Both the position numbers and the translations under genes were made by a program. Positions 24,338-62,190 of a stretch of DNA of 64,000 bases are shown here, piece after piece. Every line of letters starts with the position of its first letter. Position 1 is the stretch's first letter. The DNA is from Clostridia bacterium. GTDB taxonomy: Bacteria; Bacillota; Clostridia; Lachnospirales; Lachnospiraceae. The DNA is taken from positions 83,779-147,778 of the forward strand of contig CAJTAK010000001.1 in assembly GCA_910574255.1 (NCBI GenBank). The letters run 5' to 3'. The notes beneath the pieces were generated by a model. That model was not told the DNA's origin, made no database searches, and saw only the letters and a list, made by a program, of their open reading frames with translations.

Positions 24338-24347
24338 AAAGAGAGGA

Positions 24348-27014: not shown

Positions 27015-27019
27015 GGAAA

Positions 27020-35701: not shown

Positions 35702-35746
35702 AAGTAGTATAGGACTATGAAATATAAAAATTATGAGGAGAACGGG

Positions 35747-37381
35747 ATGAAAAAAGGACAGATTTATGAAGGTATGGTAGAGAAAGTGGACTTCCCCAAT
35801 AAAGGGATTGTGACCTGTGAGGAGCGGAATGTTGTTGTAAAGCATACGGTCCCTGGGCAGAAGGTTCGTTTTCAGGTAAACAAGATCCGCAAGGGCAAAT
35901 GTGAGGGCCGGCTCCTGGAGGTCCTGGAGCGGTCTCCTCTGGAAATAGAACCAGCGTGTCCTCATTTTGCGGTTTGCGGCGGATGTACCTATCAGAATCT
36001 GGCTTATGAGGAGCAGATTCGGCTGAAAAGCAATCAGCTGAAGGAGCTTCTGGACAGTGCCATTGGGGAACCTTATCTGTTTGAAGGGGTGAAGGAGAGT
36101 CCGCATGGTGAGATGTACCGGAATAAGATGGAATTTTCCTTTGGTGACGAGGAGAAGGATGGGCCGCTTGCCCTTGGTATGCATAAGAGAGGGAGCTTTT
36201 ATGATATTGTGACGGTGAAACAGTGCCGGATTGTGGATGAAGATTATCGGAAGATTCTTTCCTGTGTGCTGGACTATTTTAAAGAGGAGAAGGTGCCTTT
36301 TTATCATAAGCTGCGTCATATGGGGTATCTGCGTCATTTGCTGGTGCGCAAGGGCGCCAAGACGGGGGAGATTCTGGTGGTGCTTGTGACCAGCAGTCAA
36401 ATGGAGGTTCCGGATGTGCCCTGGCTGGAACGGCTTTTGGAGCTTCCCCTTGACGGGAAGCTTGTGGGGGTTCTTCATACTTATAATGACAGCTTGGCGG
36501 ATGTGGTTCAAAGTGACAGGACAGAGCTTCTTTATGGCAGAGATTATTTTTATGAGGAGCTTTTGGGGCTTAAGTTCCGGATTTCGCCCTTTTCTTTCTT
36601 TCAGACCAATTCTCTGGGGGCGGAGGTGCTCTATGAGACGGCAAGAGCTTATATTGGAGATACGAAAGATAAGGTGATCTTTGACTTATATAGTGGGACC
36701 GGGACCATTGCTCAGATGCTTGCGCCGGTGGCGGAGCAGGTTGTGGGAGTGGAGATCGTGGAGGAGGCTGTGGAGGCGGCCAAGGTGAATGCGGAGCTTA
36801 ATGGGCTTTCGAATTGTAGGTTTATTGCCGGGGATGTTTTGAAGGTAGTGGATGGATTGAGGGAGAAGCCGGATCTTATTGTACTTGACCCGCCCAGGGA
36901 TGGAGTGCATCCGAAGGCGCTTCAAAAGATTATTGACTTTGGGGTGGAGAGGATTGTTTATATTAGCTGTAAGCCGACTAGTTTGGCGAGAGATTTGGAA
37001 CTGCTGCAGGGATGCGGGTATAGGGTGGAACGGGCTTGTGGGGTGGATATGTTTCCTTCGACTGTTCATTGTGAGACGGTTGTGCTTTTGTCCCAACTAA
37101 AGCCAGATGATTATATTGATGTAGAACTGGATTTATGTGAGTTGGATGTTACTGCATCAGAGAAAGCGGCTACTTATCAGCAAATTAAAGATTATGTTAT
37201 GGAGAAACATGGTGTAAAGGTACATACAGCTTATATCGCACAGGTGAAGAAAAAATATGGTTTAGATATGCGGAAGAACTACCATCAGTCGAAAAATGAA
37301 AAATATATTGCAAAACAATGCACGGAAGAAAAGGAGTTGTATATTAAGGAGGCACTGGAGCATTTTGCAATGCTTGGTTAA
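35747..37381 (+). CDS. rlmD: 23S rRNA (uracil-5)-methyltransferase RlmD/RumA with about 95-aa low-GC C-terminal extension
   Basis: N-terminal TRAM domain, a 4-Cys cluster (CPHFAVCGGCTYQ), the SAM-binding fold (DLYSGTGTI) and the catalytic C-terminus …CGVDMFPSTVHCETVVLL. The ORF then continues about 95 codons into AT-rich sequence (…LKPDDYIDVELD…EALEHFAMLG). Confidence 0.8.
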   Translation: MKKGQIYEGMVEKVDFPNKGIVTCEERNVVVKHTVPGQKVRFQVNKIRKGKCEGRLLEVLERSPLEIEPACPHFAVCGGCTYQNLAYEEQIRLKSNQLKELLDSAIGEPYLFEGVKESPHGEMYRNKMEFSFGDEEKDGPLALGMHKRGSFYDIVTVKQCRIVDEDYRKILSCVLDYFKEEKVPFYHKLRHMGYLRHLLVRKGAKTGEILVVLVTSSQMEVPDVPWLERLLELPLDGKLVGVLHTYNDSLADVVQSDRTELLYGRDYFYEELLGLKFRISPFSFFQTNSLGAEVLYETARAYIGDTKDKVIFDLYSGTGTIAQMLAPVAEQVVGVEIVEEAVEAAKVNAELNGLSNCRFIAGDVLKVVDGLREKPDLIVLDPPRDGVHPKALQKIIDFGVERIVYISCKPTSLARDLELLQGCGYRVERACGVDMFPSTVHCETVVLLSQLKPDDYIDVELDLCELDVTASEKAATYQQIKDYVMEKHGVKVHTAYIAQVKKKYGLDMRKNYHQSKNEKYIAKQCTEEKELYIKEALEHFAMLG

Positions 37382-37534: not shown

Positions 37535-38626
37535 TTAAGGTTGCTTTTTCGTCTTTGCTGCACATTTTGAGGAAGAGTGCTTTCTGACTTCTCTCTTTTG
37601 CAGTTCAAGCCCGCAGATTTCATTGATTAGGTTGTAGTCGATGCCAGCATCAATCCATCTGCATAAATCCCTGTGAAGAATGTGATACTTTTCACCGCTT
37701 ACATCGTGAAAAAGTGTCATAGGGCTTTTGATGGAATATCCATGCAGATTCATAAATTTTTCAATCTCAGCAGAAGATGGAATAGTCAGGTAAAATGCAA
37801 GCTGTAGATAAAATTCGGGAATTTTAGGCAGTATTCCTTTCGTGTAATGTTTCCAGTTTTTTCTGTCTATCCATTTCCCTTGGATGTAATTGCTTGCAAG
37901 AACCTTTTCAAATCCGTTAAATGAAAAACAGTCATTTATCGTAAATCTGTTCCTGTTTTTAGCAGGATCGTACAGGTTGTCAAATACTTCTATCAGATAT
38001 TTCATCTTTTTAGGAATATCCAATTCCCTTAAATGTTTATTATCAATGATGTTCATGCCATTCATAGGAAGACTGGTAAAATCAAATGTTGTGTAGAACT
38101 TGTTTCGTGCGAAGGCAAGCTCTGTTATTCTATTGATATAGACCATCTTATGCTTCTCGTAATCGTCAATAAGCGGGGCTGAAAATGCCCTTTGGGGAGA
38201 AGGATCTTTATATAGATTTTTATACAATTTTTTATATTCTTCTAATGCATCAATCCGCTTGCTTGCAAGTTTGCTGTCCTCTGGCTTTGTTTCTATCTGT
38301 TCTGTTAGGTAGGTATAGACAGGCTGCACATCCCTTTTATTTAATTCCCAAATAGGTAATCCAGAAAAATCCATGATTGGTTTATCAAGTGGGTTACGGG
38401 AATCTACACTAATCCACATGCCATCCAGAGTAAAAGGCATGGAAGAGTAGCGGTATGCTTCCCTTGCAGATGCAAATTTTTCTTGCTCCATAATATCGGA
38501 ACTGATGAATTCATCAATGGTATTTTGGAAGCCCTCAAAATCTCCCTGTAACAAAGAATCATATGCAGATGTATTTAGTGCCTCTAATTCTGCATATAAT
38601 TGGCTGTAAGATAATTTATCCTTCAT
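37535..38626 (-). CDS. Hypothetical protein (363 aa)
   Basis: ORF with a good coding look and no recognisable motifs. AT-rich. Confidence 0.45.
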   Translation of the reverse strand: MKDKLSYSQLYAELEALNTSAYDSLLQGDFEGFQNTIDEFISSDIMEQEKFASAREAYRYSSMPFTLDGMWISVDSRNPLDKPIMDFSGLPIWELNKRDVQPVYTYLTEQIETKPEDSKLASKRIDALEEYKKLYKNLYKDPSPQRAFSAPLIDDYEKHKMVYINRITELAFARNKFYTTFDFTSLPMNGMNIIDNKHLRELDIPKKMKYLIEVFDNLYDPAKNRNRFTINDCFSFNGFEKVLASNYIQGKWIDRKNWKHYTKGILPKIPEFYLQLAFYLTIPSSAEIEKFMNLHGYSIKSPMTLFHDVSGEKYHILHRDLCRWIDAGIDYNLINEICGLELQKREVRKHSSSKCAAKTKKQP

Positions 38627-40829: not shown

Positions 40830-41966
40830 TTATAAATTATATTTTTCCCTTAACGGGTAATAGATGTAATCTACATGGATATCATCCCAATTCTGCCTTG
40901 GTATTCGCATATTCTGGAAAAAGCATTCCCTTTTGGTAAGGGACTGTTTTTCACATCTGGAATAATCGAAGCCCTGTTCCATTTCTTTTTCACGTAAAGA
41001 TATGATTCTGTCTGCATCTGACATATATACTTGCAAAGTGATTTGTGGGTAAAAACCCAAATACCTTTCCAGCATAAGATAAATGCAGATGATGTTTTCA
41101 TAAATCTTTTTTAAGTACATATTGTTGCATTTATCGAAAGTGCCGATTGTGATTTTTCCGTCAACAGGCTTCCCGATGAAGAAGAATCCTGCGGCTGTCA
41201 TATTGAAAAGGGAATAGTAATTTCTCCTGTATTCCTTTGGGGAAGATAGCAGGTCTTTCTCCCTTTGCAGTTTGTTTTTGATGCCAAGATATGCAGAGTA
41301 GTCATCATCAATCTTATATCCAAGGAAATTACATTGATGATGGTATAGGTCTGCGGTGATTTTATAGTAATCATCCATGAAATCAGATACACGTGGGAAT
41401 CCAGAAGAGATAAGTTCCTTGTCCTTGATGGGGAAGCTTTCATACAGGCTGCCATATAGCTGATAGACGGCCATTTGGTTTTCCGTTGTGAAGATTGAGA
41501 TGCAGTAGTCCGTTAAAAAGTTTAAAAGATTCTGCAGAGTCAGCTCTATGCCAAGCTGCTCCATAAAAAGTACAGCCTGCCTGATAATGAATTCAGCCCT
41601 GTAGACGTTGTTCCATATTTTTCTGTTATTCAGCTTAATGGAACAGGAGTCCCTCGTACTGCATTCGTGGTACATGGCAAGGGGGAATTTGGTCATAATA
41701 TAGATACAGGTTTTTGTGTCCGTGGCCTGTTTCTTAATCAACAAACCGTAGGAGAGCAGGTCTGCAACCATATCGTTAGCCCTGTGTTCATTTATCTGAT
41801 AGAAAATCCTTGCCAGTGTAACCATCTGCTTTTTCAGCATGAATCCATTTCCAATGTAGAAGAGTATATTTAATATGGGAATATTCCTGTTAAAGCATTC
41901 TTCCTTTGCCAGTCTGTTTTTGGTCCTGGCAGAAATATTTTCGTTCCTGTACATATGTGATTTCAC
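40830..41966 (-). CDS. Hypothetical protein (378 aa)
   Basis: ORF only. Confidence 0.45.
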   Translation of the reverse strand: MKSHMYRNENISARTKNRLAKEECFNRNIPILNILFYIGNGFMLKKQMVTLARIFYQINEHRANDMVADLLSYGLLIKKQATDTKTCIYIMTKFPLAMYHECSTRDSCSIKLNNRKIWNNVYRAEFIIRQAVLFMEQLGIELTLQNLLNFLTDYCISIFTTENQMAVYQLYGSLYESFPIKDKELISSGFPRVSDFMDDYYKITADLYHHQCNFLGYKIDDDYSAYLGIKNKLQREKDLLSSPKEYRRNYYSLFNMTAAGFFFIGKPVDGKITIGTFDKCNNMYLKKIYENIICIYLMLERYLGFYPQITLQVYMSDADRIISLREKEMEQGFDYSRCEKQSLTKRECFFQNMRIPRQNWDDIHVDYIYYPLREKYNL

Positions 41967-42145
41967 ACTCCTTTTTCTATTGTAAGTCTTAAAAAGGCTT
42001 ACCTTATATCATAAATAAAAGAAAAGGATCAATAACCAGACAGGAAAATAGGATGCTGTGGCAGAGTATGCGATTGGAATTCCAAACAAACAGCCCCACT
42101 GGAAAGGCGGGGCTGTCTGCATATAAATCTACAGTTTGTTAATTT

Positions 42146-42415
42146 TTAGGCTTCATAGTAGAACGCTTCAAAAAGCCTTTCACAATCTTCAACGGACTGC
42201 AAGTTATAATGCCCGTGGTTAAGTGTCTGCAGTCGTTCATTCCATGAAGACCAGAAAGCATATGAGCCATCTTCTTTTTTTGCAGAAACCATATATAGAT
42301 AATTGTCCGCTGGATGATAGGATTTCTGCCTGATTTCCAATACTGTATACTTAGGAAGATGCTTCTTAAAATAAAGCTCTATATGCTTCCTTACTTCGTT
42401 TAAATTAATCGCCAT
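42146..42415 (-). CDS. Small hypothetical protein (89 aa), last gene of the minus-strand ssb operon
   Basis: ORF, 15-nt gap to the upstream gene. Confidence 0.4.
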   Translation of the reverse strand: MAINLNEVRKHIELYFKKHLPKYTVLEIRQKSYHPADNYLYMVSAKKEDGSYAFWSSWNERLQTLNHGHYNLQSVEDCERLFEAFYYEA

Positions 42416-42430
42416 AAAATGATTCTCCTT

Positions 42431-42892
42431 TCAAATCAATGGTAACTTATAAAAGGAATCCCCCATAACTTTGATTAATGTTTGGGCTTCCCTTTTATTA
42501 CAGGATTGCAGAAAATGGTAGAATATAAGTCCTGAAAATGCCTGCTGTAAAGTTCTGTGGTCTATCGCCATCTCCTTTGCCACTTTTTCCATCTTCACAT
42601 TGCTGACAGATTCCATCTTCTTCTGGACAAAGGGAATCTCCGCAAGCTGTCTGCCTGTTTTGGCGGATGCTTCATTCCTAAAATCTGTCCTGTATCCGCT
42701 GTCAGATATTACCTTTATCCAGCAGATATCCAAATCCTCCATCTGCTTGGAATCCCTCTGTTCCTCTGCTATCTTATCAGGCTTGAAGAACATGTTGTTT
42801 ACCTCATGGGAAAAATACTTCGCAATCTCCTGTGGATTTGCAGTCTTTAAATCCATCATAATATCTACCTCTTTTCCTTTATGCTTTTGCAA
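42431..42892 (-). CDS. Hypothetical protein (153 aa)
   Basis: ORF overlapping the J-domain gene by 14 nt. Confidence 0.4.
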   Translation of the reverse strand: MQKHKGKEVDIMMDLKTANPQEIAKYFSHEVNNMFFKPDKIAEEQRDSKQMEDLDICWIKVISDSGYRTDFRNEASAKTGRQLAEIPFVQKKMESVSNVKMEKVAKEMAIDHRTLQQAFSGLIFYHFLQSCNKREAQTLIKVMGDSFYKLPLI

Positions 42893-43409
42893 GCTTCTTC
42901 TTTTCCTCTGTGTCTTTTTTAAACCTGACTTCTACACAGCCATATTTTTCCCTGATATAACTCATGGAAGCAGATTTTGAACTGAACTTATGGAAATCAT
43001 CAAAATGCAGATACCACATCTGCTTCTGACTTGCCCAATGGAAGCCCAGTTCTTTCAGTTCCTTTCGGTAAGCATAACAGTTTGACACCCATATCCAGAC
43101 ACCAATAATCTCAACCTTGATTCCTTCAAACCTTGCAAGCTGCATGACCTTTTCCCTGATCAGCTTGTCTTTCTGCCAGTCATAGGCCTGCTTCTGCTTG
43201 TCGGTTGCATCTTTGTATGTATCCTTATGCTCAAAGTCACTTTTCAGTCTCTTGAACAAAATGTCATACTCTGCATTGACTTCCTTGATGATTTCTTCGG
43301 AACCGCCGTTATCAGGATGATGCTTCACAACAAGCTTCCTGTACAGCTTCCGCAGTTCTTCAAGCGACTTCACATCTTTGAACCATTTCATGCGTATCTC
43401 TCCCTTCAC
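42879..43409 (-). CDS. J-domain (DnaJ-like) protein
   Basis: LRKLYRKLVVKHHPDNGGSEEIIKEVNAEYDILFKRL: the HPD tripeptide in a typical J-domain helix II/III context. No DnaJ Zn-finger or C-terminal domains. Confidence 0.7.
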   Translation of the reverse strand: MKGEIRMKWFKDVKSLEELRKLYRKLVVKHHPDNGGSEEIIKEVNAEYDILFKRLKSDFEHKDTYKDATDKQKQAYDWQKDKLIREKVMQLARFEGIKVEIIGVWIWVSNCYAYRKELKELGFHWASQKQMWYLHFDDFHKFSSKSASMSYIREKYGCVEVRFKKDTEEKKKLAKA

Positions 43410-43870
43410 AATAAATCTGCTTCCTTAAAACTCAGGTAACTGTTTCCGCCGATAATGATGTGGTCTGCTAAAGCGATATGTAACAGAGCACCTGATTCCT
43501 GAACCTTTTTGGTTAATTTTATATCCGTGTCTGTCGGCGTCGGGTTTCCAGAGGGATGGTTATGGCAGAGTACAATCTGCACCGCCCCAATAAGCAGAGC
43601 CCGTATGAACACTTCCCTTGGGCTTACAAGGCTTGCATATACAGTCCCTTTGGAAAGAAAAAATATTCCCAATATCCTGCAGGAACTGTTAAGGGCGATC
43701 AGGTAACAGTGTTCTTCCGCCAGTTCGCCTATATGCAGGAGGGACTGCAGCATTAAAACGATATTTTCAGGGTGTTTTATATTTGCCCCCTCATAATTGA
43801 TCCCTTTCTCTTTTACTAAAATGGTTGTGCCGTCATTGGCAATCCTCGTGTCATAGAAATTAATCCTCAT
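43406..43870 (-). CDS. radC: RadC-like JAB/MPN+ domain protein
   Basis: The JAMM motif HNHPSGNPTPTDTD plus upstream Glu and the Ser of the JAB domain. 154 aa, as in the short mobile-element RadC versions. Confidence 0.8.
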   Translation of the reverse strand: MRINFYDTRIANDGTTILVKEKGINYEGANIKHPENIVLMLQSLLHIGELAEEHCYLIALNSSCRILGIFFLSKGTVYASLVSPREVFIRALLIGAVQIVLCHNHPSGNPTPTDTDIKLTKKVQESGALLHIALADHIIIGGNSYLSFKEADLL

Positions 43871-43929
43871 GATGCGTTCCTTTCATAAACAAGGGATACC
43901 GCAGAAGCGGCATCCCTGTTGAAATAACA

Positions 43930-45255
43930 TTATTCTGTGTCAGGGTTTATTTCTTCGGGAGGCTTATCTTCCTCTGTCCGTGTGCCATGTTCCAAATCAT
44001 CAGACACGGCATTGGGGAATATGCCCTCGATTGTGGGAGCAGGAGCAGATTCTTCTTCCAGGATTGGACTTTCTTCTGTATTTTCTGCAGGCAATCCATT
44101 TTCTGTTCTGTCCGTATCCGTAGGCATACTGCCATCTGGGAGGGATTCTCCGTCAGGGGAGCTTTCTTCCGATAAAGGAATATCCTGTCCATTCTGTTCT
44201 GATTTTTCAGTCTCTTCCAGCTCAAAATACTTTTTCAAGGAGCTTTCCATAACCTCAATCCTTTTTAAAGTCTTTTCTTTTTTGATGCTGCCCGAAGAAC
44301 AGTACTGCTTATAGTCCTCATAGCATTCATCAAAAAAGTAGGAAAACCACTGCCTGAAATACATGGGGCCTACCCGATAGATGCCTTTTGTGGAATCATA
44401 ATCTGTTCCCATCGCAGTATCAGCCACAAGGAAAACAATTGGAATATTGATTTTTTTAAGCATCTTGTCTTTTTCAGGAAATACCTTTTCCAGATAGTCA
44501 ATGATGTCATAAAGACGTTCTTTCTGTTCTTCCGAATAATTATTTTTGATATGTGCGGCATACCGCATAATTTCATCCGCAGAAATGGAGGAAAATTCAT
44601 AACCCTCATGTCTGCTGTCCAGAAGCATCATGGACTGTAGCAGGGTACACATATCATCAGATTTCCTCCGCTGCAGGGCAGAGAACTGGCAGATATCCGA
44701 AAAGAACCTGTCAGCAAGGAGCGACTTGATGAACTTCGCATTTTCAACACCGCATAAAGGCATTGCCTTTTGGGGCTTCGACAATGGGGCACTGTTATTC
44801 AGACGGAAGAAAATCTCTTCTATTAGGTCATCGTCCGCATCTTCAAAGCCATAGATTGTGAACTTAAAACGAAGTATTTCCTGCTGGCATTCTGCATCAA
44901 GGTCAGTGAAATATCTGCCGCCCAGTTCATAAGTAACTTCGTCAATGACAACGGATGGGGTTTCCTCATCCAACGGGTATCTCCCGTCTATGTAATCAAA
45001 AATCGTTGTCAGACGCTGTTTCCCGTCAAGGATTGAATAGGAATAATCCTTTTCACTGACTGCTTCTTTCAGACAGTAGACAGGGGGAACAGGGTAGTTT
45101 GCAAGGATGCTGTGGATCAGCAGGCTCTTTTTCAGTTTGTCACCGTCCCACTGTCCGCTTTGGCGTTGGATTACGTGATCCATTTGAAGGGTATTTTTCC
45201 CATCATACATGTTCTTTAGATTTTTTACTGTCCAGTTTAAAGTTGTCTTAATCAT
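43930..45255 (-). CDS. DUF262 (ParB/Srx-like nuclease-NTPase fold) domain protein with acidic C-terminal tail
   Basis: DGQQR-type motif SILDGKQRLTTI and an upstream HVIQRQ motif. The C-terminal 100 aa are Glu/Asp/Pro-rich low complexity. No DUF1524/HNH partner domain. Confidence 0.7.
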   Translation of the reverse strand: MIKTTLNWTVKNLKNMYDGKNTLQMDHVIQRQSGQWDGDKLKKSLLIHSILANYPVPPVYCLKEAVSEKDYSYSILDGKQRLTTIFDYIDGRYPLDEETPSVVIDEVTYELGGRYFTDLDAECQQEILRFKFTIYGFEDADDDLIEEIFFRLNNSAPLSKPQKAMPLCGVENAKFIKSLLADRFFSDICQFSALQRRKSDDMCTLLQSMMLLDSRHEGYEFSSISADEIMRYAAHIKNNYSEEQKERLYDIIDYLEKVFPEKDKMLKKINIPIVFLVADTAMGTDYDSTKGIYRVGPMYFRQWFSYFFDECYEDYKQYCSSGSIKKEKTLKRIEVMESSLKKYFELEETEKSEQNGQDIPLSEESSPDGESLPDGSMPTDTDRTENGLPAENTEESPILEEESAPAPTIEGIFPNAVSDDLEHGTRTEEDKPPEEINPDTE

Positions 45256-45572
45256 ACTGATTTCTCCTTTGCGAAATGGATTTTTATATCCATAAAAATG
45301 GAAAGTTTCAATTAGGTTATTGGGATGCCGTATTCACGGGCTGCATCGCTTATTATCTCGATGCAGTCCTGTATGACAGATGCTGAATCAACAAACAGCA
45401 GCCTTAAAATATAATCGCCTGTATCATCCAGACTTCCCAAAGCAGAAAGATAATCCCTCCGCTTATCCGTCAGTGCAGATACGGCCTTTTTGAAAAGTCC
45501 CTCTGCATCAAGGTTTTGGGATTCTGTATTGATGCAGTCTGTTTTCTCTCTGCCATTCCATGTAACTGGCCT

Positions 45573-45911
45573 TCAAACGTCCTGCTTTTTGGTTTCCAGA
45601 AATTCCAGTGAATCAATTACGATTTCATTGGAATATACTTTCTTCCCGTTTTTCTCATAATTATTATTTTTCAGCTTTCCAGAAATGAGGAGTTTTGTGC
45701 CTTTAGAGCAATGCATTTCTACAATCTCTGCCAGTATGTTCCAGCAGGTACATCTGAAAAAGTCAGTAGGGTAGTTTCCCTGTTCGTCCCTTTTCATGGA
45801 CATATCTGGTACGGCAAAATTAAATATGGCATGTGCCACGGGTTCAGTACCCATGCGGTACTTTACTGTTGGATCTTCCGTTAGCCGCCCTGTCAATATG
45901 ATTTTGTTCAT
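45573..45911 (-). CDS. ssb: Single-stranded DNA-binding protein (short, no acidic tail)
   Basis: OB-fold start MNKIILTGRLTEDPTVKY…, 112 aa. Confidence 0.85.
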   Translation of the reverse strand: MNKIILTGRLTEDPTVKYRMGTEPVAHAIFNFAVPDMSMKRDEQGNYPTDFFRCTCWNILAEIVEMHCSKGTKLLISGKLKNNNYEKNGKKVYSNEIVIDSLEFLETKKQDV

Positions 45912-46019
45912 GCTTCATTCCTGCACTTTGAAAGTGCTTATCCTTTCTTATAAATTTTGTTTTTATAAAATTTCTTGAATCTTCCTATAGGGAACTTTTC
46001 GATACTGCCATGTAGAATC

Positions 46020-46916
46020 TTAAAAGACAAATCCCTTGTCTTTGTTGTAGTAATAGGCCTTAGTTCCTAAAATCTCGTTTGCCTGTACCTGCATCATATT
46101 TACTTCCAGATTCATTTTGGTAAGGGAAATGGCATCAAGCCCGCAGGATTCAGGAAGCAGCAAGGCTTCATGTACGGAAGAAAAGATTACATAGAAACTG
46201 CCATACTTTCGAGTAAAATCTTTCAATATATCATCGAATAGTATCGTAACAGCTCCTGCAACCCTTTTCTTGTTTGACAGTACCCAAAAGGGGCAGTCAG
46301 AAGCCTCAACTTCTTTAAAATCCTGAGCTATGCTTTGCAGGACATTTCCCATGTTCTGCAGGCTGGCTCCCATCATAGCCCTTGTATTATGTATTGCATG
46401 AGATATCAGTGATTCCTGATCTACACCCCAAAGGTTTAAGTGATAGTTGTGTACCAGAAAACTTGCCGTTTCGTTTTCTGTTGCACTGACCATGCAGCGG
46501 ACAATAACCGCAAAGTCATCAAGGAACTGACGGTGGGGTACATCCTGCAGTAATTCCTTGTTAAGATGCCTGTTGACCAGTTCCACATAAATCTTTTTAC
46601 GGGGCAGATCGTAAGTTAAAAATGGGGCAGTATCAAAATGGCGGGGATAAACCTTTGAATCAGAATAAATCTGCAGGATTCTATCCATAACATCATCAAT
46701 AGATACACCATTATCAAGTGCTTCATAAAAAGATTCCAGATAAATGGTGGGGGAGATGTTTTCGTTGCCATGCCTGATTGTCAGTCCATCCAGCTTCTCA
46801 TTTGTCTTTAAGACTTTCTGGATGGAAAGGTGGAAGCTATCTCCTAATTTCTTAGAAAGTGCCTCCAAAATCTGTTGTTTCATTGCTTCTTTGTTCATGT
46901 ATTTTTCTCCTTTCAA
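46020..46916 (-). CDS. Hypothetical protein (298 aa), first gene of the minus-strand operon
   Basis: ORF only. Confidence 0.45.
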   Translation of the reverse strand: MKGEKYMNKEAMKQQILEALSKKLGDSFHLSIQKVLKTNEKLDGLTIRHGNENISPTIYLESFYEALDNGVSIDDVMDRILQIYSDSKVYPRHFDTAPFLTYDLPRKKIYVELVNRHLNKELLQDVPHRQFLDDFAVIVRCMVSATENETASFLVHNYHLNLWGVDQESLISHAIHNTRAMMGASLQNMGNVLQSIAQDFKEVEASDCPFWVLSNKKRVAGAVTILFDDILKDFTRKYGSFYVIFSSVHEALLLPESCGLDAISLTKMNLEVNMMQVQANEILGTKAYYYNKDKGFVF

Positions 46917-47534
46917 GGTTGTCTGGACAAAAAAGCAAACATCACTTTATGATGTCTGCCAGTCCATAAGTTACAGTTATCATATTTCACAAAACCTGCT
47001 ATTCGCCAAAATAGTCTTACACTGTATATTGTAGAAGGATATGCATATAAAATAAGAAAGCAGAAAGATAGGATGCTGTCTGTCGGGATGCTATCCAGTC
47101 GTGGAGTTATTCATTGAAGACCATTTTTTATAATGAAAGTGTATAGAGAAAAGGAAGTCATTTTTGACTGTTTGAAAAGGGGCCTTAACATAAGGCATTC
47201 ATCCATAATCTATACTTCTTATAAATATATCAGGGTGCTGTTTAGCATTGTTTAAAAGGGGATGTTTCGGCAGTTCCATACAGGGTACAGGATATATGAT
47301 ATTCCTGCGGACCTGACTACCGCCAACTTAGTTGACATCAGGGTGCCTTGCTTACAGGGTAATGTTATGAGGAAAATGGATGAACAGGGAAAGCGGTAAA
47401 AAGGAAGAATGATATACAGGGTTCATCGGATAAGATGAAGAGCAAAAACTTTTGTTTTTGGGTGGGAATGTCTTTTTGGGATGTTCCCGCTTTTTTATAT
47501 ACATAAAAATGTTCTGGAACAGGAGGTGAAATTG

Positions 47535-48140
47535 ATGAAGGAACATATCAAGCATTGGTATCCAAAGGACGAGAGATTTTTCAAAGTGTTATCCATAGCA
47601 GGGAATATCAGGCAGGAGGATGCCGCAAAGATAGATATTTCGACAAGCAGGCTCAAAAACATGGAGAAAGATAAGCTGATTGAGAAAGTGACTTATCCAT
47701 CCAGATATAATAAGAACCCAAGAAGCAATGTAAGTTATGCATTGACAAAGAAGGGGAAAGATTTTGTCTGTCAAAAGTATGGGATAAGCAGATGCCAGAA
47801 TGCACATGCAGCAGAACATAACTGCAAAGTTGCCGAGGTGATATGCAGTCTGGATAAAAAAGAGATTGAGACAGTGCAGGCAGAATGGCAGACAAGGGAT
47901 CAGATGGAAGAAGCACTGGAGCAGATGAGGCAGGAGGGTGATTATGACCAATATGACTATTACATGGATTTGTGGAAAGCAGGGCTTATCAGTGCGGTGG
48001 ATGTGGCATATATTTCCGTAAAGACAGGGGAGATGGTGTGCTGTGAGGTAGTAACAAACAGTTATAAAGATTCAGATAAACAGGCAAAGGAATACTGTGG
48101 GGAGATTTTGCAGATGGAGGTTGAGTATGTGAGGGTGTGA
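47535..48140 (+). CDS. Hypothetical protein whose 3' end is the recurrent junction of the downstream cassette array
   Basis: ATG at 47535 behind RBS AGGAGGTGA; the track start 47481 is in frame. The last 180 bp recur at 49212-49390 and the last 16 bp at 50935-50950. Confidence 0.5.
   Translation: MKEHIKHWYPKDERFFKVLSIAGNIRQEDAAKIDISTSRLKNMEKDKLIEKVTYPSRYNKNPRSNVSYALTKKGKDFVCQKYGISRCQNAHAAEHNCKVAEVICSLDKKEIETVQAEWQTRDQMEEALEQMRQEGDYDQYDYYMDLWKAGLISAVDVAYISVKTGEMVCCEVVTNSYKDSDKQAKEYCGEILQMEVEYVRV
47962..48140 (+). repeat. Cassette-junction repeat copy 1 (intact 3' end of gene 47535..48140)
   Basis: About 179 bp, about 85-88% identical to copy 2. Ends with ttgagtatgtgagggtg TGA. Confidence 0.85.
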
Positions 48141-48331: not shown

Positions 48332-48967
48332 ATGCGATTTTCTAAAGTAAAAGAGAAACATATATATAATGTTATGTTCGACCCTGTTCGTCAATGTGAA
48401 TTTAATTTAACACATCCTGCAGTTGTCTTAAAAAAGAATAATGATAGTAAAACATGTGTTGTTATGCCCCTGACAACAGAACCTAATGGAGTTGGTGAAA
48501 ATAAAATTGATATTGGATGTATTTCTACTTTGCCAAGTTCGTTAAGGGGCAATAATACATATGCAGTGTTCAATCAAGTAAGAACAGTGAATGTCAACCG
48601 TTTTATAGCATTTAAAGAAGTGATTGACGGGCAAAATACACCTATAGATTGCTCAATGGATGATTTTACTTTTGGAATTTTGTTGCAAAAAGCATTATCA
48701 GATTTGACTTTTGCATACACAATTGACGAAAAAATGGATTTATATCAAAAATTGTATAATGAAGAAAAATTGAATAAGTGCATTAGTATTGCATATAATA
48801 TTAAAAGATTGGATGCAGAATTTGAGGCAATGAATAGCCAGCGGATTCTTTTAAACAATGAGCTTGGGCAGTTGCTTGATAATTTTGATTATGAATTATC
48901 TCAAACTGAACTAGAAAATGGAATTCAACAGGTCTTTGAAAATGCGAAAAAGTCTGTTGACAGTTGA
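48332..48967 (+). CDS. MazF/PemK-like toxin-fold domain fused to a roughly 100-aa helical C-terminal domain (cassette 1 cargo)
   Basis: N-terminus IYNVMFDPVRQCEFNLTHPAVVLKKNNDSKTCVVMPLTTEP matches the MazF/PemK signature (Y.P.RGDI…FDP..G.E…RPAVVLS….vVvPlTS). No antitoxin ORF upstream. Confidence 0.55.
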   Translation: MRFSKVKEKHIYNVMFDPVRQCEFNLTHPAVVLKKNNDSKTCVVMPLTTEPNGVGENKIDIGCISTLPSSLRGNNTYAVFNQVRTVNVNRFIAFKEVIDGQNTPIDCSMDDFTFGILLQKALSDLTFAYTIDEKMDLYQKLYNEEKLNKCISIAYNIKRLDAEFEAMNSQRILLNNELGQLLDNFDYELSQTELENGIQQVFENAKKSVDS

Positions 48968-49211
48968 TTGTTTATGTGTTATCCTAACTATTAAGAAGAG
49001 AGTTGATAACTCGGACAAAAAGTAGTATCGGGTATGAAATCCCAACAAAAAAGAAAATTCTAAATACAAAAAAGCATTGGATTTTAGTATTCAATGCTTT
49101 TTTGTTGTAAAACTTCTGATTGTACAAGAAATCTACTGTAAGCATAAAACAGGTTTGCTAATGTATAAGGATACAAATAAAGTGGATGCGAGCAACATCT
49201 GTCTGTAAGAT

Positions 49212-49390
49212 ATATGGATCTGTGGAAATCAGGGCTTATCAGTGCGGTGGATGTGGCATATATTTCTGCAAATACAGGGGAGAGGGTGTGCTGTGAGGTG
49301 GTGACGAACAGCTATAAAGATTCAGATATACAGGCAAAAGAGTATTGTGGGGAAATCCTGCAGACGGAGATTGAGTATGTGAGGGTGTAG
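49212..49390 (+). repeat. Cassette-junction repeat copy 2 (decayed duplicate of the gene 3' end)
   Basis: Aligns base-for-base with 47962-48140 (…cagggcttatcagtgcggtggatgtggcatatatttc…ttgagtatgtgagggtg TAG). It retains an open frame encoding …YMDLWKSGLISAVDVAYISANTGERVCCEVVTNSYKDSD…EYVRV*. Confidence 0.85.
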
Positions 49391-49702
49391 GGTAGGGAGA
49401 AACTACATTTAGATTTCAGAACAAAGAATGAAAAAAGGTATACTTATATTTTTATTGCAGTGAAAATATTCTTGTTTTAGAAAGTAGGAAATAGGTATAT
49501 GTAATCAAAAAAGATACATAAAAAGAGATAATAATATGATAGTAGTCTCTATATTACACATAATTTAACATGATAATATGTAAGTGTTTTTGTGTGGCAA
49601 TACAAAAAAAGTATTGTGTAAAAAGAGTCATTATAATTATGTGGAAAAATCTGAAAAATCGTGATATACTATACAAATCAAACTTAGAAAGAAGAAAAGT
49701 GT

Positions 49703-50521
49703 ATGGGGAAAAAGCGGTATACATTATATTTGGATGAAAGCAGGACTACCCAGGCACATCAAGGAACCCCTTTTTTTAGTATGGCGGGCATTGTTATACT
49801 GGATAAGCATTATCCAGTCATTCAAACAGAAATTGATGTGTTAAAGCAGAAAACATGGGGAGATTTACCTAATTACAAAGACATCATACTGCACCAGATG
49901 AATATTTCTAATGCGGCTAAGGATAAATTAGATTTTGTGAAATATCCTGAATATGAAAGATTCAAAAGCAAGCCATTTAGAAGGGAATTTAATAGAAATC
50001 TTGCGAATATATATGATTGTAAGAAAATTACGATTATTGGAAGCAGTATTAATGAATCATATTTGAAAAAGTGTTTTGAGGTATCCGTTGTTCAGGAAGG
50101 AAACAGGATTTATAGAAATGTACCTGATGAGAAATTGATTGCATTACAACTCTTATTGGAAAATTACTGTCAATTTTTATGTGAACATAATGGTCTTGGG
50201 AAAGTGATATATGAGTCTGTTGGAGATATACAGGATGAGGCTTTGCGGTGCAGGTTTTATAATATTAAACTTATGGGCTCAATGTATATTACACAAGATG
50301 CAATGGCAAACCATTTGCTTGGAATTGATTTTATCCCTAAGTGCCAGAATAATGCGGGGTTACAAATTGCAGATTTTGTACCTAATGCTTTTGCAAGAGA
50401 CCATGCGGGGTTTTATCAGATTGACAGGGATGAAATCTTATTTAATAAAATGAAATATTATAGATATGATGGTATGGTTGCAAGGGATAAGGATAGGTTT
50501 GGTGTTAAATATATGCCTTAA
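49703..50521 (+). CDS. DUF3800 family protein (cassette 2 cargo)
   Basis: N-terminal YTLYLDESR and C-terminal GLQIADFVPNAF match the DUF3800 signature. Confidence 0.65.
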   Translation: MGKKRYTLYLDESRTTQAHQGTPFFSMAGIVILDKHYPVIQTEIDVLKQKTWGDLPNYKDIILHQMNISNAAKDKLDFVKYPEYERFKSKPFRREFNRNLANIYDCKKITIIGSSINESYLKKCFEVSVVQEGNRIYRNVPDEKLIALQLLLENYCQFLCEHNGLGKVIYESVGDIQDEALRCRFYNIKLMGSMYITQDAMANHLLGIDFIPKCQNNAGLQIADFVPNAFARDHAGFYQIDRDEILFNKMKYYRYDGMVARDKDRFGVKYMP

Positions 50522-50766
50522 TATCCTATAAAAATGAAGTTTATATTAGTTTTTTCATTGTAAACAGATTTTTAATAGATTGTCTACATAAAATTAGAAA
50601 AATTGAATATTGACAAGCAGTGCTGCATATAGTAATATGGATATAGGGATTGGGAAGCAGTCTTGTCATATGCCAAGAACTAGTGTATTGGTATATGTAT
50701 CAGGAATAGAGTCCAAAGCTTGAGTATGCTAATAAGCATACAGCCGTAATCGAACCCTATATCGAA

Positions 50767-50797
50767 AGAGCTACCGTGCTAGGTGGCTCTTTTGTGT
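50767..50797 (+). terminator. Terminator-like hairpin downstream of cassette 2
   Basis: AGAGCTACC (50767-50775) pairs with GGTGGCTCT (50782-50790, one G·U) around loop GTGCTA, followed by TTTTGTGTT. Preceded by the small hairpin GTATGCT-aata-AGCATAC. Confidence 0.45.
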
Positions 50798-50934
50798 TGC
50801 AGAAACACTGTTTTTTAGGGTATCACGTTAAAAGATTTGCTGTGCTGGCTGTTAAAGTGTATGCATATGAAAATTATAATATCACGGTAGTGATTGACTT
50901 TATGGAAAGATGGTATAATGGAAAATATCACTAA

Positions 50935-50950
50935 TGAGTATGTGAGGGTG
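50935..50950 (+). repeat. Cassette-junction repeat copy 3 (16-bp core only)
   Basis: tgagtatgtgagggtg is identical to the last 16 bp of copies 1 and 2 (48122-48137, 49372-49387). Confidence 0.7.
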
Positions 50951-51274
50951 CAAAAATTATAAAGAAAAAAATTAGAATAGATTTACGGAGTACCGCTTGT
51001 GAGTAAAAAACTTCTGCTTGTGCATAAAATCTATTGTAATCCAGAAAATAGCCTGTATAATAAGTAAAAATATGATATTTAGCGATAAAAAGGCAGATGC
51101 TGGTAACATCTGCCTGTAAAATCCAGTGTGCAATCATTCGTCCACACACACTTGATTTCTGTATTATTATAACGTAAAAAGACAGAAAAACAATAGATTT
51201 ACTGTATGATAAACAGTATTTGAATGATAGATAGAATGATTGCTCCTGACATCTGTGATGAAGGGAGTATTTTT

Positions 51275-52912
51275 ATGGAATTTAGAACAATAGAGCAGGA
51301 TGCACAGCTTAAGACATTAGATGATTATTTTGAAGTGAGGAATCCATATCTTTTATCAGAATTTTTTAAGCGGGAAAATATCTATGATGATGACCTGCTG
51401 GCAGATGAAGGATGTTATACATTTTTTCAGGAAATCCATGCACATAACCTTAAAAGTATGCTTGTCAATTTTACCTGTATCTATGCACCGCCGATAGACA
51501 GGGATGCTTATGGGGCGAAGGATGCAATGGACATCCTTGAAGAAAAGCAGAAAGAGGATACTTTTGTTTTTGAGGTATTGATACCAAAAGGAAAAGTAAC
51601 GGAAAGAAAACTTAGGTCAATGGTGGCATTTGCGAACCATCTTGGAATGAGCATTTATATGAGCGTGGCAGATTATGTCAGGATGAAAAGGGTGTCGGAT
51701 AACTTGTATGGGGTAAGTTCCATTGTCCTTGATCTGGATACATACCATTCGATTTATGAGTATGATACGGATGAAGAAATGATGCAGGAGATGCGGCCAG
51801 TGATTGACAGGATTGGCATAGAGCCTAATATGTATATCAATTCAGGACGTGGCAGGTATCTTGTCTATTCTTTCAATAATATCAATTTAAGTGTCCCAGA
51901 AATGAGGAAGCTGTATCAGGAGACAGTAAAGAAGCTGATTTTCCAGTTTAAGGAGTTTGGAGCAGATGCGAAATGCTCCGATATCACAAGGGTATTCAGG
52001 GTTCCTGGCAATACCAACCCAAAGACAGGGGAGAAGGCATATATTGTGGAATGCGTTGAAAGCAGGGGAACCTTATCAGAACTTGCTGCGGCAGTCGGCA
52101 TATGCAAAGGGAAGACTGTATCTGAGAAGAAGAACAGGAGCAGGCAGAGAAAATATGAGATGTATCATCTCTCTTTAGGGAAGAGCAGGTATACAAAGGT
52201 CAATATGCAGAGGGATGATGATTTTAATACCCTGTTGGAGCTTCGGGGCTATGATATGGAGGGTTATAGGAATATTTTGTTTCATTTAATGTCGGTGAAC
52301 TGCTTTTATCTTGGCATGGATGAAGATTCCGTAAGGGATTATCTGGATGAAATAAACAGGTCATTAATTGTACCATATGATTCCCTTGATGCAGTCATCC
52401 GTTATGCAAAGTCTAACCATGAGAGGTATGAAGATGATTATGAGGGAGCTGTCAAATATACAAACCGCACGATTGTGGGGCTTCTTGATATCACAGAGGA
52501 AGAACAGAAGTATATGAAACAATTAATCGGGCAGGAAGAAGCCGACAAAAGGATAGAAGAATCTGGTAAAAAGAAAATAGATAACCAGATGAAGAAAAAG
52601 CGGGAAGGCACGGAGAAAAAAGCTGTCAAGTTAAAAGAAGAGATGCTTGCACTTAGATATGGCAAATTGCTTGACAATAAGCAGATTGCTCAGGAAGTCG
52701 GCAAAAATGAGAAGACAGTGGACAGGCAGATTGGGCTGACACCAAAGTTTGTGCTAGTTGGAAGGATGAGCAGGGAACAGGCAGTCTATTACTATTGCCA
52801 TTGGGAGCATAAAACAAATGTTGAGATTGCAGAGATTATGGGTATATCTGTAAGCAGCGTACATAATGCAAAGAGGAAATTGAAGGATATGGAACAGTAT
52901 GCTGACATGTAA
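51275..52912 (+). CDS. Replication initiator / primase-like protein (prim-pol-like N-domain, PriCT-like region, C-terminal HTH)
   Basis: …RVFRVPGNTNPKTGEKAYIV… resembles plasmid/phage primase-Rep catalytic regions. …YRNILFHLMSVNCFYLGMDEDSVRDYLDEIN… resembles the PriCT_1 motif. C-terminal sigma70-r4/LuxR-like HTH VEIAEIMGISVSSVHNAKRKL. ATG at 51275 behind RBS GAAGGGAG; the track ORF starts at 51224. Confidence 0.55.
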   Translation: MEFRTIEQDAQLKTLDDYFEVRNPYLLSEFFKRENIYDDDLLADEGCYTFFQEIHAHNLKSMLVNFTCIYAPPIDRDAYGAKDAMDILEEKQKEDTFVFEVLIPKGKVTERKLRSMVAFANHLGMSIYMSVADYVRMKRVSDNLYGVSSIVLDLDTYHSIYEYDTDEEMMQEMRPVIDRIGIEPNMYINSGRGRYLVYSFNNINLSVPEMRKLYQETVKKLIFQFKEFGADAKCSDITRVFRVPGNTNPKTGEKAYIVECVESRGTLSELAAAVGICKGKTVSEKKNRSRQRKYEMYHLSLGKSRYTKVNMQRDDDFNTLLELRGYDMEGYRNILFHLMSVNCFYLGMDEDSVRDYLDEINRSLIVPYDSLDAVIRYAKSNHERYEDDYEGAVKYTNRTIVGLLDITEEEQKYMKQLIGQEEADKRIEESGKKKIDNQMKKKREGTEKKAVKLKEEMLALRYGKLLDNKQIAQEVGKNEKTVDRQIGLTPKFVLVGRMSREQAVYYYCHWEHKTNVEIAEIMGISVSSVHNAKRKLKDMEQYADM

Positions 52913-52925
52913 GGGTATGGAGGAA

Positions 52926-52952
52926 TCCATATCCTATTTTTTGTTGTGGTGT
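52926..52952 (+). terminator. Putative terminator after the primase/Rep gene
   Basis: TATGGA-ggaa-TCCATA followed by tcctATTTTTTG. Confidence 0.4.
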
Positions 52953-53436
52953 AATGCAAAGTGATTTCTTAATCAAATACATAAATTTGAAACGGCTATT
53001 TTAAGACAATTTCTTTAAAAGGCATAAGGCTACCTAAAATACTAAAAACTCGCTCTACGAGGCTCACGGAAGCTCATAGAGACATAATACTATATCCTAA
53101 TTGTTAAAAAATTAAGAATAAATGAATTGTAAATATGGTTGTTGAGATAGAGATTATTCAAAATAGGAATAACATTAAAAACAAGAAAAAGCATCATTTT
53201 CATCAAATTTTTGAAATTTTAAACGGACAAAGATTTTTGGTCCGCTCGAAAGAGTATATGTTTGGTGGTATCAGTTTTTTTCTCAATTTTGCACACTTAT
53301 TATAAAAAGTATCATATGTGGATGTAGGACAATATGGGAGTATTGTGGGGAGATATTTCAGACATAGGAAGAGTATGTGAGAGCATAGTAAAGAGGGGGA
53401 TACCATATGGCCTCCCCCTTTTGATGATATAGAAAA

Positions 53437-54279
53437 TCATGCAACTATGTCTATATTGAAGTAATATCCAAGGACTTCCAAAGCCTTCTGGTCACGGTAC
53501 ATTTTCAAAACCACATCTTCTGGGAAACAGCATCTTTTTTTCACGATTGGCTCAAAATTGCCTATTAGGGAAATTTCCTTTAGGCAGGTGTCTTGAAATC
53601 CGTCAGGAGGGAAATACAAGGATTCTGCATTACTCCATAATGACAAGGATTCTAAACCATCTGCACCTGAAAAAGTGCGTTCTTCCAGCTTGTCAAAGCT
53701 GCCCTTTATTTCAAGAGATTTAAGGGAATGGCAGCCACTAAATAGATCGTTTCCTAATTGCTTAATCTGGTATCCTAAGTCCAGGGTTTCCAGACTGGTA
53801 CACCCTGCAAAAGCCCCATCTCTGACAGTCTTTAAAATGTAAAAATGTGCTTCTTTCAGGCTTTTACATCCTTTAAAGGCATTATAGGAGATTGTGTTTA
53901 GACCAGACTGTGCCCGAATAGATTGCAGGTTTTTGCAGTTTAAGAAGGTTTCTTCCTTAATAATATGCAGGCACCTTGGAAGCAGTATCTCTTCAAGTTC
54001 ACTGCCTGCAAAGCATCTCTTGCCAATTTTAAGACCTCTTGGCAGTTTTACATTTAGAACGTGTGCATTTTCCAAAGCACAGTCATCCAGATATTTTACA
54101 CCTTCCTCTATGCAGAGGAGGTTGATCCTCAGATAATCAAAACAATGGGGGCTGATGCGGTCAATCTGCTTTCCCTTATATTGATGTGGGATGATAAGAT
54201 AATCCAGCCTCTCCCACATCATGCTATGATTACATTTAACTAATGTGTTGGTTGTTTCGTCTATAACGAATCTTTCCAT
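53437..54279 (-). CDS. Leucine-rich repeat (BspA-type, LRR_5) protein, no signal peptide
   Basis: Repeated …F.gC.sL..i.l… units: CFAGSELEEILLP, FLNCKNLQSI, AFKGCKSLKEAHF, AFAGCTSLETLDL, FSGCHSLKSLEI. Confidence 0.65.
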   Translation of the reverse strand: MERFVIDETTNTLVKCNHSMMWERLDYLIIPHQYKGKQIDRISPHCFDYLRINLLCIEEGVKYLDDCALENAHVLNVKLPRGLKIGKRCFAGSELEEILLPRCLHIIKEETFLNCKNLQSIRAQSGLNTISYNAFKGCKSLKEAHFYILKTVRDGAFAGCTSLETLDLGYQIKQLGNDLFSGCHSLKSLEIKGSFDKLEERTFSGADGLESLSLWSNAESLYFPPDGFQDTCLKEISLIGNFEPIVKKRCCFPEDVVLKMYRDQKALEVLGYYFNIDIVA

Positions 54280-55802: not shown

Positions 55803-55858
55803 TTTTATGGAATTGTATTAAAAAATGATAAAATTTATTATAGGAGGGATAATTTAAA

Positions 55859-57982: not shown

Positions 57983-57997
57983 TTTAAGGAGGAAAAT

Positions 57998-59236: not shown

Positions 59237-59242
59237 TTCTAA

Positions 59243-62188: not shown

Positions 62189-62190
62189 AC

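Follow-up and report, generated by a model that had tools for sequence, protein, structure and literature searches.

A stretch of 64,000 nucleotides (nt) of contig CAJTAK010000001.1 (assembly GCA_910574255.1, a Clostridia bacterium of the Lachnospiraceae), the whole of which is called the window below, carries at positions 42146-46916 a block of minus-strand genes for, among others, a single-stranded-DNA-binding protein (SSB), a DUF262 protein, a RadC-like protein and a J-domain protein. The block lies on an integrated island and is taken, at slightly better than even confidence, to be an establishment-type operon of gut Lachnospiraceae integrative elements that have no conjugation machinery of their own and probably depend on mobilization in trans, in the form of single-stranded DNA (ssDNA). 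The seven open reading frames (ORFs) of the initial annotation were all found at the coordinates that it gave, and its domain assignments (tail-less SSB, DUF262, RadC-like JAB and HPD J-domain) were upheld by profile searches. The genes and features of the block, in the direction of transcription, are as follows.

46020..46898, minus strand: DUF5688 protein of 292 amino acids (aa), first gene of the operon (PF18941, E 8e-79), frame open from TTG 46916
45573..45911, minus strand: SSB consisting of the OB fold only, 112 aa (PF00436, E 2e-21; TIGR00621)
45312..45572, minus strand: eighth small conserved ORF in the spacer between ssb and the DUF262 gene, with the core ...LRLLFVDSASVIQDCIEII...EYGIPIT
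43930..45255, minus strand: NsnA-like ParB-DUF262 plus ParBDB protein, 441 aa, solo (GmrSD_N PF03235, E 1e-13)
43892..43917, minus strand: GC-rich hairpin at the junction of the DUF262 gene and radC, terminator-like in the scan (11 pairs, 7 of them GC, weak T tail)
43406..43870, minus strand: RadC-like JAB protein, 154 aa (PF04002, E 5e-36; phrog_10276; NF000642)
42879..43391, minus strand: J-domain protein, 170 aa (ORF 42879-43409), with an HPD J-domain, a long helix and a β-β-α-β-β C-terminal domain
42431..42859, minus strand: orphan protein p153, 142 aa (ORF 42431-42892), family-less in Pfam, PHROG, NCBIfam and PADLOC
42146..42415, minus strand: LPD24 domain protein, 89 aa, last gene of the operon (PF18839, E 6.5e-28)
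42082..42115, minus strand: intrinsic-terminator-like hairpin and T-run 3' of the LPD24 gene (scan match 42108-42093; sequence CAGCCCCGCCTTTCCAGTGGGGCTGTTTGTTTGG)

The starts ATG 46898 (292 aa), ATG 43391 (170 aa) and ATG 42859 (142 aa) were those of the gene caller on identical contigs and are likely the true ones, and an upstream ribosome-binding site (RBS), GAAAGGAG, was found for the DUF5688 gene. The minimal or overlapping spacing that had been described for the block held for the RadC, J-domain, p153 and LPD24 genes only, with gaps of 108, 317 and 59 nt elsewhere. Among the members that had been regarded as uncharacterised, the ORF at 42431-42892 was indeed family-less, but those at 42146-42415 and 46020-46916 were identified as an LPD24 protein and a DUF5688 protein, respectively. 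The hairpin at 43892..43917 is possibly an internal attenuator or an RNA-processing site, and that at 42082..42115 is likely the end of the transcription unit. Scans of the block proteins against NCBIfam, PHROGs and PADLOC were concordant with Pfam or gave nothing extra.

For comparison, the ORFs of about 35 related genome loci were clustered together, each locus being taken with ±10 kb around the homologous block. The gene order of the block recurs in about 35 diverged loci, and because the order is identical in them the block is a real conserved module and not a product of chance.

Proteins of the block

The SSB scored 80 bits against TIGR00621, above the 54-bit cut-off. Its chain stops 4-5 residues past the OB fold, without a linker and without the acidic tip of the D-D-D-I/L-P-F type. 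Since its homologs have the same end point or an acidic/Pro/Thr tail of about 30 aa that lacks a DDDIPF-type tip, tail-lessness is, as judged from these chain ends, a family trait of this SSB. The ssb TGA as a nonsense mutation or as a site of programmed read-through to a tailed SSB was rejected as a general mechanism, because homologous SSBs end alike and the downstream frame is off ssb in nine diverged loci; for the window lineage alone, such a mutation or read-through is possible.

The frame of the eighth ORF is open straight after the ssb TGA. Its sole canonical start in the window is TTG 45440 (42 aa), and the conserved N-terminal part is without any canonical start there; in loci L009 and L013 the homolog is a 79-aa ORF with a GTG start. 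The core is kept in 14 diverged loci and the frame relative to ssb varies between groups, being directly behind and in frame with the ssb TGA in the window, L016, L034, L009 and L013, and different from it, with an overlap of the ssb tail, in nine other loci. No Pfam match was obtained for this ORF, and read-through, a non-canonical start or truncation may each account for its translation.

The DUF262 protein matched PADLOC NsnA (E 6e-28, residues 5-343) and phrog_2598 (E 1e-39), contained the motifs QRQSGQW, DGKQR and FFRLN in its translation, and ended in an acidic disordered C-terminal tail; a PDB sequence search with it gave nothing useful. The NTPase motifs of the NsnA type are defined as QRxxxW, DGxQR and FxxxN (PMC12065111). 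Compared with Menshen NsnA (Millman 2022; PMC12065111), the window protein is similar over the full length with the three NTPase motifs intact, but it has the extra acidic tail and sits in an ssb/radC operon of a mobile element. Unlike in Menshen, there is no NsnB ATPase and no NsnC effector (no BECR/PIN match), the neighbours being ssb, a small ORF and radC. Unlike in GmrSD type IV restriction, only the GmrSD_N domain is present in the window protein, and DUF1524 is not.

These likenesses raise the alternative that the block is a defence or exclusion module, namely a solo NsnA-like sensor of foreign DNA, possibly with RadC as a nuclease or peptidase effector, by which the host or the island would be shielded. 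Besides the full-length NsnA match, it could draw on the use of DUF262 as the sensor in GmrSD, SspE and Menshen (PMC12065111), on the ParB-like protein Osa, by which rival DNA is degraded, and on the AbiH, KAP NTPase, DUF3800 and PemK-like genes of the island with AbiTii/TIR genes past the window. It is nevertheless considered very unlikely: NsnB (an ABC ATPase), NsnC (the effector) and the DUF1524 HNH domain are all absent, no other block protein has a match to a defence model save a marginal one of the JAB protein (E 2e-3), and the module is conserved whole with ssb and a relaxase-like gene, while those genes of the island that are obviously for defence belong to its variable cargo.

The RadC protein scored 123.7 bits against PF04002 (cut-off 22.1 bits), and its metal-binding motif HNHPSG...D is intact (HNHPSGNPTPTDTD in the translation). 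For the J-domain protein, hereafter the J protein, the J-domain fold was confirmed, with HPD between helices II and III. Its scores against the NCBIfam DnaJ equivalogs were 15-24 bits (cut-offs 338-619). It lacks the Gly/Phe, zinc-finger and substrate-binding domains of type I/II DnaJ, and its C-terminal part is a different small domain, of the order β-β-α-β-β, with only weak hints toward DUF5710-containing viral replication proteins. The orphan p153 has 52 cluster representatives among 1.84 billion proteins and occurs in 23 related loci; its relatives are stand-alone proteins.

RadC is restricted to polyvalent proteins of conjugative elements (PMC5512222), and LPD24 is a domain that was defined from polyvalent proteins of conjugative elements (Pfam description). 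The block shares with the polyvalent proteins (Iyer, Burroughs, Anand, de Souza & Aravind 2017, PMC5512222) the RadC, ParB-like and LPD domains such as LPD24, as well as the proposed early action on transferred ssDNA and host defences. Polyvalent proteins, however, fuse two to fifteen effector domains, whereas the block is made of separate ORFs of 89-441 aa and has no processing peptidase.

The divergent relaxase-like gene and the conserved intergenic region

Upstream of the operon lie a divergent gene and a non-coding region with the following features.

47535..48140, plus strand: divergent 201-aa protein with an N-terminal winged helix and a C-terminal alpha/beta domain, distantly Replic_Relax-like
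46899..47534: conserved 620-nt non-coding region between the relaxase-like gene and the operon
47231..47422, plus strand: CAGGGT array, five same-strand copies as exact repeats in 192 nt (ACCCTG on the operon strand)
46925..46960, minus strand: terminator-like hairpin and T-run right upstream of the RBS of the DUF5688 gene, from the scan and local folding

A relaxase or an oriT had been expected near the block by the initial annotation, and a weak Replic_Relax-like candidate and a repeat-bearing region were found, but no curated relaxase and no recognised oriT. Replic_Relax is the MOB_C relaxase family (PMC5357655). Among the relatives of the 201-aa protein, 19 of 39 matched Replic_Relax at E <= 0.01 (best 1.3e-5), and the other matches of the family were to generic winged-helix families only. 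The 201-aa protein itself scored 18.4 bits against Pfam Replic_Relax PF13814, by which the cut-off of 25.3 bits was not passed, and its hhalign probability with a real MOB_C relaxase, that of a MOB_C-typed E. faecalis plasmid as the reference, was only 17%; the assignment as a relaxase is weak on both values. An accepted MOB_C-typed enterococcal relaxase was also under the Replic_Relax cut-off, at 20 bits. A PDB sequence search with the 201-aa protein gave nothing useful. The protein is a weak candidate for a MOB_C-like relaxase or a DNA-processing protein.

The 620-nt region showed 73-80% nucleotide identity across the loci, with long invariant blocks, versus 67-80% for the genes. It folded better than shuffled controls (z -2.8 to -3.95), and this was so on both strands (z -2.8 and -3.1). 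The region is a candidate oriT, operator or promoter-leader; a consensus sigma-70 pair was not found on its operon strand. The five exact copies of CAGGGT in 192 nt compare with about 0.05 expected, and 34 copies were counted in the whole window on both strands. Several of the five lie in invariant alignment columns, and near-copies occur besides. The array represents candidate iteron-like protein-binding sites and a candidate target of the winged-helix protein.

The hairpin at 46925..46960 showed compensatory changes at two stem pairs across the loci and is a candidate leader attenuator. Two more small hairpins upstream of it were observed in L024-L033 (alignment A4 columns 608-646), whose stems co-vary (CTGGT/ACCAG versus CTGAT/ATCAG). 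The co-varying leader hairpins suggest regulated attenuation or antitermination of the operon. A global RNA structure for the 620-nt region was rejected, since most of the predicted pairs were invariant and only three local hairpins showed compensatory change.

Relatives on plasmids and phages

The relatives of block genes on plasmids are the strongest evidence for the idea of a leading region. Homologs of the protein, the C-terminal domain included, were found by tblastn in 2,684 plasmid records, which were predicted to be conjugative (2,205 records, 82%), mobilizable (316) or non-mobilizable (163). The J proteins of IncX and Enterococcus plasmids have both the J-domain and the C-terminal domain in common with the window protein, at 30-40% identity. 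The 'dnaJ' backbone gene of IncX3, IncX4-like-size, IncI2-like-size, enterococcal and Acinetobacter plasmids was seen to belong to the two-domain family of the window J protein, examples of the records being NZ_MK033582.1 (IncX3) and NZ_CP008814.1. The stand-alone J-domain proteins of the IncX3/IncX4/IncI2 'dnaJ' backbone genes are like the window protein in the HPD J-domain, in the small size and in the location on a mobile element, and a stand-alone J-domain protein is encoded by a phage as well, namely Rki of phage RB43. No functional study of the plasmid J-domain family turned up in the searchable literature.

On an IncX3 plasmid, the J gene is the first of eight small co-directional genes aimed at ddp1/taxA and the MobP1 relaxase, and on an Acinetobacter MOB_F plasmid it stands in a similar run aimed at the coupling protein and the relaxase. 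The MOB_C-typed E. faecalis plasmid carries in succession the type IV coupling protein (T4CP), the MOB_C relaxase, 1.1 kb, an LPD11-like gene, a J-domain gene, DUF3850 and SSB, and after SSB a nuclease, a toxin-antitoxin pair, PcfM, the anti-CRISPR AcrIIA9 and PcfJ. On a Clostridium plasmid, the J gene occurs with a ParB-N protein, radC, AcrIIA9 and PcfJ. Few plasmids, with three Butyrivibrio records, contain DUF5688; in pNP21 an ArdC-N-like gene comes after it, and a relaxase/T4CP operon lies divergent to it.

The DnaJ and RadC families are contained in the family table of plasmid leading regions (PMC11541004 supplement). Like these regions (Samuel & Burstein 2024, PMC11541004), the block is formed by small genes of one orientation, including ssb, and has a relaxase-type gene and a conserved non-coding region as neighbours, and J-domain, RadC and SSB homologs are found there beside AcrIIA9 and ArdC-like genes. 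Unlike them, it lies in a chromosomal element without a type IV secretion system (T4SS), a recognised oriT or a curated relaxase, has no known anti-defence gene and no demonstrated Frpo homology, and faces away from the non-coding region. The leading-region or establishment character that had been proposed for the block is partly supported by the gene relatives beside relaxases, ArdC-like genes and AcrIIA9 on plasmids, but not by the orientation of the operon or the missing T4SS. Homologous contexts near relaxases, which the initial annotation had suggested to search for, were found for genes of the block. Compared at the DNA level with the plasmid and phage collections, the block itself remained unmatched.

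The collections also bear on the alternative of a prophage remnant or phage satellite, whose early region the block would be, with genes that would serve phage takeover and not conjugation. PHROG families match the SSB, the DUF262 protein, the RadC protein and the J protein, J homologs are present in Fusobacterium and Enterococcus phage records, and DUF5688 homologs are present on five virome contigs labelled Bacteriophage sp. These contigs are, however, unverified and unannotated and carry DUF5688 alone, and the phage records are few, 8 and 5, versus 2,684 plasmid records for the J protein. Virion structural, packaging and lysis genes (capsid, portal, terminase, tail, lysis) and hallmark genes of satellites were not found by Pfam in the larger island ORFs, by PHROGs in ten block and adjacent proteins, beyond the window or in the related loci. 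A phage origin is considered highly improbable.

Occurrence of the module in related loci

The block is syntenic in more than 30 of the related loci, which are almost all from mouse-gut Lachnospiraceae, and the module reaches beyond 42146-46916. In addition to the block it includes the protein p378 (40830-41966), often a 363-aa protein (37535-38626), the divergent 201-aa gene (47535-48140) and the intergenic region.

40830..41966, minus strand: p378, a conserved 378-aa protein of unknown function, in 29 related loci

No match of p378 was obtained in Pfam, PHROG, NCBIfam, PADLOC or the PDB sequences; its gene adjoins the relaxase-like gene in L009, L013 and the loci of type B described below.

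The module was found on at least three integration platforms. The first is the window type, inserted in rlmD. The second (L009 and L013) is compact, with the order tpiA, tyrosine integrase, p378, 201-aa gene, intergenic region and block. The third, type B (L010 and L017-L022), has the block downstream of TniQ/TnsD-like genes and immediately behind those of a DEAD-box helicase and a Toprim protein, with p378 and the 201-aa gene about 8 kb downstream of the block. In type B, the module may ride on a Tn7-like carrier. At its far end, a protein of RuvC-like appearance (C34) was observed beside p378 and the relaxase-like gene.

The type B arrangement leads to a further alternative, in which the block is the replication or maintenance module of an excised circle or of a phage-satellite-like island, with primase and helicase, and has no role in entry or counter-defence. 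SSBs are replication proteins, the type B operon comes directly after DEAD-box helicase and Toprim genes, a 562-aa protein of the island has a weak RepB-primase match, and the iteron-like CAGGGT array could be a replication origin. J-domain proteins and DnaK moreover serve the initiation of plasmid and phage replication, as in the release of DnaB from lambda P and the activation of P1 RepA by DnaJ/DnaK. On plasmids, however, the J and ssb genes lie near relaxases and anti-CRISPR, ArdC-like and toxin-antitoxin genes and not near the rep gene of the replicon, and transferred elements typically employ RadC, LPD24 and ParB-like domains as early effectors. This alternative is regarded as unlikely, although roles in replication and in establishment are not mutually exclusive.

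The integrated island and its class

The island is delimited and equipped by the following two features.

37073..37381, plus strand: left end of the island, a replacement 3' end of an rlmD/rumA-type methyltransferase gene, seen as an identity step to L001
61001..62188, plus strand: tyrosine recombinase, 395 aa (PF00589, E 6e-7)

The first 37 kb of the window (1-37 kb) are ordinary chromosome with pilins, PspA, tRNA-Trp, PcrA and an RlmD/RumA-type methyltransferase, and at 37.4 kb the GC content, about 0.47 up to there, drops to about 0.33. The left junction, at 37073, falls within the methyltransferase gene (35717-37381), some 310 nt short of its 3' end, and the element therefore brings a replacement 3' end for its target gene. 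Between the window and L001, identity is 100% over more than 10 kb to the right of 37073 and 69% to the left of it, and L003 and L004 part completely from the window at base 37073. Identical copies of the island were found on many gut-metagenome contigs and in one metagenome-assembled genome, with differing neighbours. Because it is 100% identical between hosts whose flanks are 69% identical, the island is, by this comparison, mobile, and its arrival in different hosts, at one and the same site in an rlmD-like 3' end, was recent. A candidate sequence of the att core is GAGACGGTTGTGC...

An integrative and conjugative element (ICE), to the leading region of which, or of a plasmid, the block had first been likened, was not borne out. 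Neither a T4SS or coupling protein (VirB4, VirD4/TraG/FtsK-type) nor a curated relaxase was detected by Pfam in the island ORFs of at least 100 aa, and none was found in about 7 kb past the window or in the ±10 kb around the block at each of about 35 related loci; in the clustering of 35 loci, a DEAD-box helicase was the only recurrent large ATPase. Since a T4SS and a coupling protein were not found, the element is not an ICE, and on its gene content it would be at best an integrative mobilizable element (IME), for which a mobilizable nature is plausible. The IME traits that are present are the tyrosine recombinase, the site-specific junction at 37073 and the evidence of horizontal movement.

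With the Firmicutes IMEs (Coluzzi et al. 2017, PMC5357655), including the PF13814/MOB_C class, the element has in common the integrase, the insertion in the 3' end of a housekeeping gene, the lack of a T4SS, a small Replic_Relax-type candidate relaxase and the modular swap of integration modules. It differs from them in its size of more than 34 kb and its load of defence cargo, in a relaxase membership that is based on a weak match, and in one variant tied to TniQ/TnsD-like genes.

Proposed function of the operon

The following course of events is proposed for the establishment-type operon. The element would be mobilized in trans as ssDNA, with the 201-aa protein acting as a MOB_C-like relaxase or relaxosome protein on the repeat-bearing intergenic region. 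After transfer, the products of the operon would target the incoming DNA and the new host: the SSB would coat the incoming ssDNA, the ParB-DUF262 protein as an NTPase or DNA binder and the RadC JAB enzyme would process or protect the incoming DNA, and the J protein would bring host DnaK, via HPD, to a target picked by its small C-terminal domain. DUF5688, the orphan p153 and LPD24 would be candidate counter-defence or establishment factors. Expression of the operon is probably governed by the leader that ends in the terminator-like hairpin.

Several results weigh against this interpretation. No block protein was placed in any known anti-defence family by the Pfam, NCBIfam, PHROG and PADLOC scans, and the closest named relative of the DUF262 protein is a defence component, NsnA. 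The type B operon stands behind helicase and Toprim genes, which fits a replication role also, and homologs of four block proteins (SSB, DUF262, RadC and J-domain) occur in PHROG families. A helper element was not identified, a T4SS is absent nearby, and the right end of the island (attR or the displaced methyltransferase 3' end) was not found in the window or in loci extending about 7 kb further. Upstream of 46916, where a look for Frpo-like hairpins had been suggested, folding above shuffled controls was observed, but the hairpins there are short and local, and covariation backs three of these and not a long hairpin of the Frpo-like kind. Finally, the eight block genes are on one strand and are transcribed away from the 620-nt region.

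Leading-region genes are encoded with the T-strand as template and hence point toward oriT (PMC11541004). With nic in the 620-nt region, expression of the operon from ssDNA would be impossible, because the transferred strand would be the coding strand, and this too is at odds with the proposed course. Two arrangements are envisaged: nic lies either past the 3' end of the operon (below 42146), with the 620-nt region as promoter or leader, or in the 620-nt region, in which case expression of the operon must wait for second-strand synthesis.

Taken together, the establishment-type operon is partly supported, namely by its context, and the ICE is not, and each of the three alternatives is less well supported than the establishment-type operon. 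A more specific proposal, considered quite unlikely, is that the J protein family consists of mobile-element co-chaperones that would hijack host DnaK right after entry and, in the window, would work with DUF5688, p153 and LPD24 in an attenuator-gated counter-defence or establishment operon. The purpose of the family could be to remodel an establishment protein of the host or the element, or to blunt chaperone-dependent immune sensing; host DnaJ is reported to mediate the sensing by bNACHT25 (PMC12169576).

Cargo of the island and neighbouring chromosome

Behind the tyrosine recombinase follows a gapless set of co-oriented genes for 620-, 551- and 192-aa proteins, which continues past the window as read from identical contigs. 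These three genes gave no Pfam match, and the 620-aa ORF is cut off by the end of the window. The recombinase and the 620/551/192-aa set (61001-63999; L052-L057) recur as a unit with varying upstream neighbours, an IS66 insertion in L053 among them, and may be a multi-gene recombination module. The 395/620/551/192-aa recombinase set may resemble Tn554-type tnpA/B/C.

Defence-type cargo was observed at 48332-60343, comprising a PemK/MazF-like gene, DUF3800, AbiH, a 707-aa P-loop ATPase with a KAP NTPase, and a BspA-type leucine-rich repeat protein, and AbiTii/TIR genes were observed on the island past the window end (L053 and L056). The 3' end of the relaxase-like gene (…GAGTATGTGAGGGTG…) is repeated at the border of each downstream cargo unit, the copies being at 47961-48138, 49211-49388, 50935-50950 and 53338-53388, and the units so bordered are the PemK/MazF-like gene, DUF3800 and the 562-aa primase-like gene. 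The window differs from L001 by a 1,250-bp PemK-like insertion of its own, with 178-nt direct repeats on both sides. The 3'-end copies at the cargo borders look like a serial accretion of cassettes at a hotspot.

In L003 (17874-19847), a metagenome copy, the methyltransferase 3' fragment of the island is joined, in the same reading frame, to the end of a large serine recombinase ORF of 657 aa, which suggests a secondary-site insertion or a chimeric junction. An Rfam scan of the island gave no family at E <= 0.1. Outside the island, 16503-28838 is a chromosomal Gram-positive pilus/adhesin locus unrelated to the block, with a 1769-aa isopeptide-domain protein, an LPXTG pilin with SpaA and Cna-B, and MucBP and DUF5979 proteins. 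The 1769-aa ORF was considered as a tape-measure or prophage gene and rejected, being a pilin/adhesin in ordinary chromosome.

Significance

The element is a clean case of a transfer between species that is recent and had the 3' end of an rlmD-type gene as its target. The main lead is the J-domain family, which is present on more than 2,600 sequenced plasmids, including the sizes and types by which NDM and mcr-1 are spread, and DUF5688, LPD24 and the orphan p153 are further testable candidates. If the interpretation as an establishment-type operon is true, small T4SS-less islands of abundant gut Clostridia would carry establishment and anti-defence tools of the same kind that large conjugative plasmids have, and the leading-region concept would extend to mobilizable chromosomal islands.

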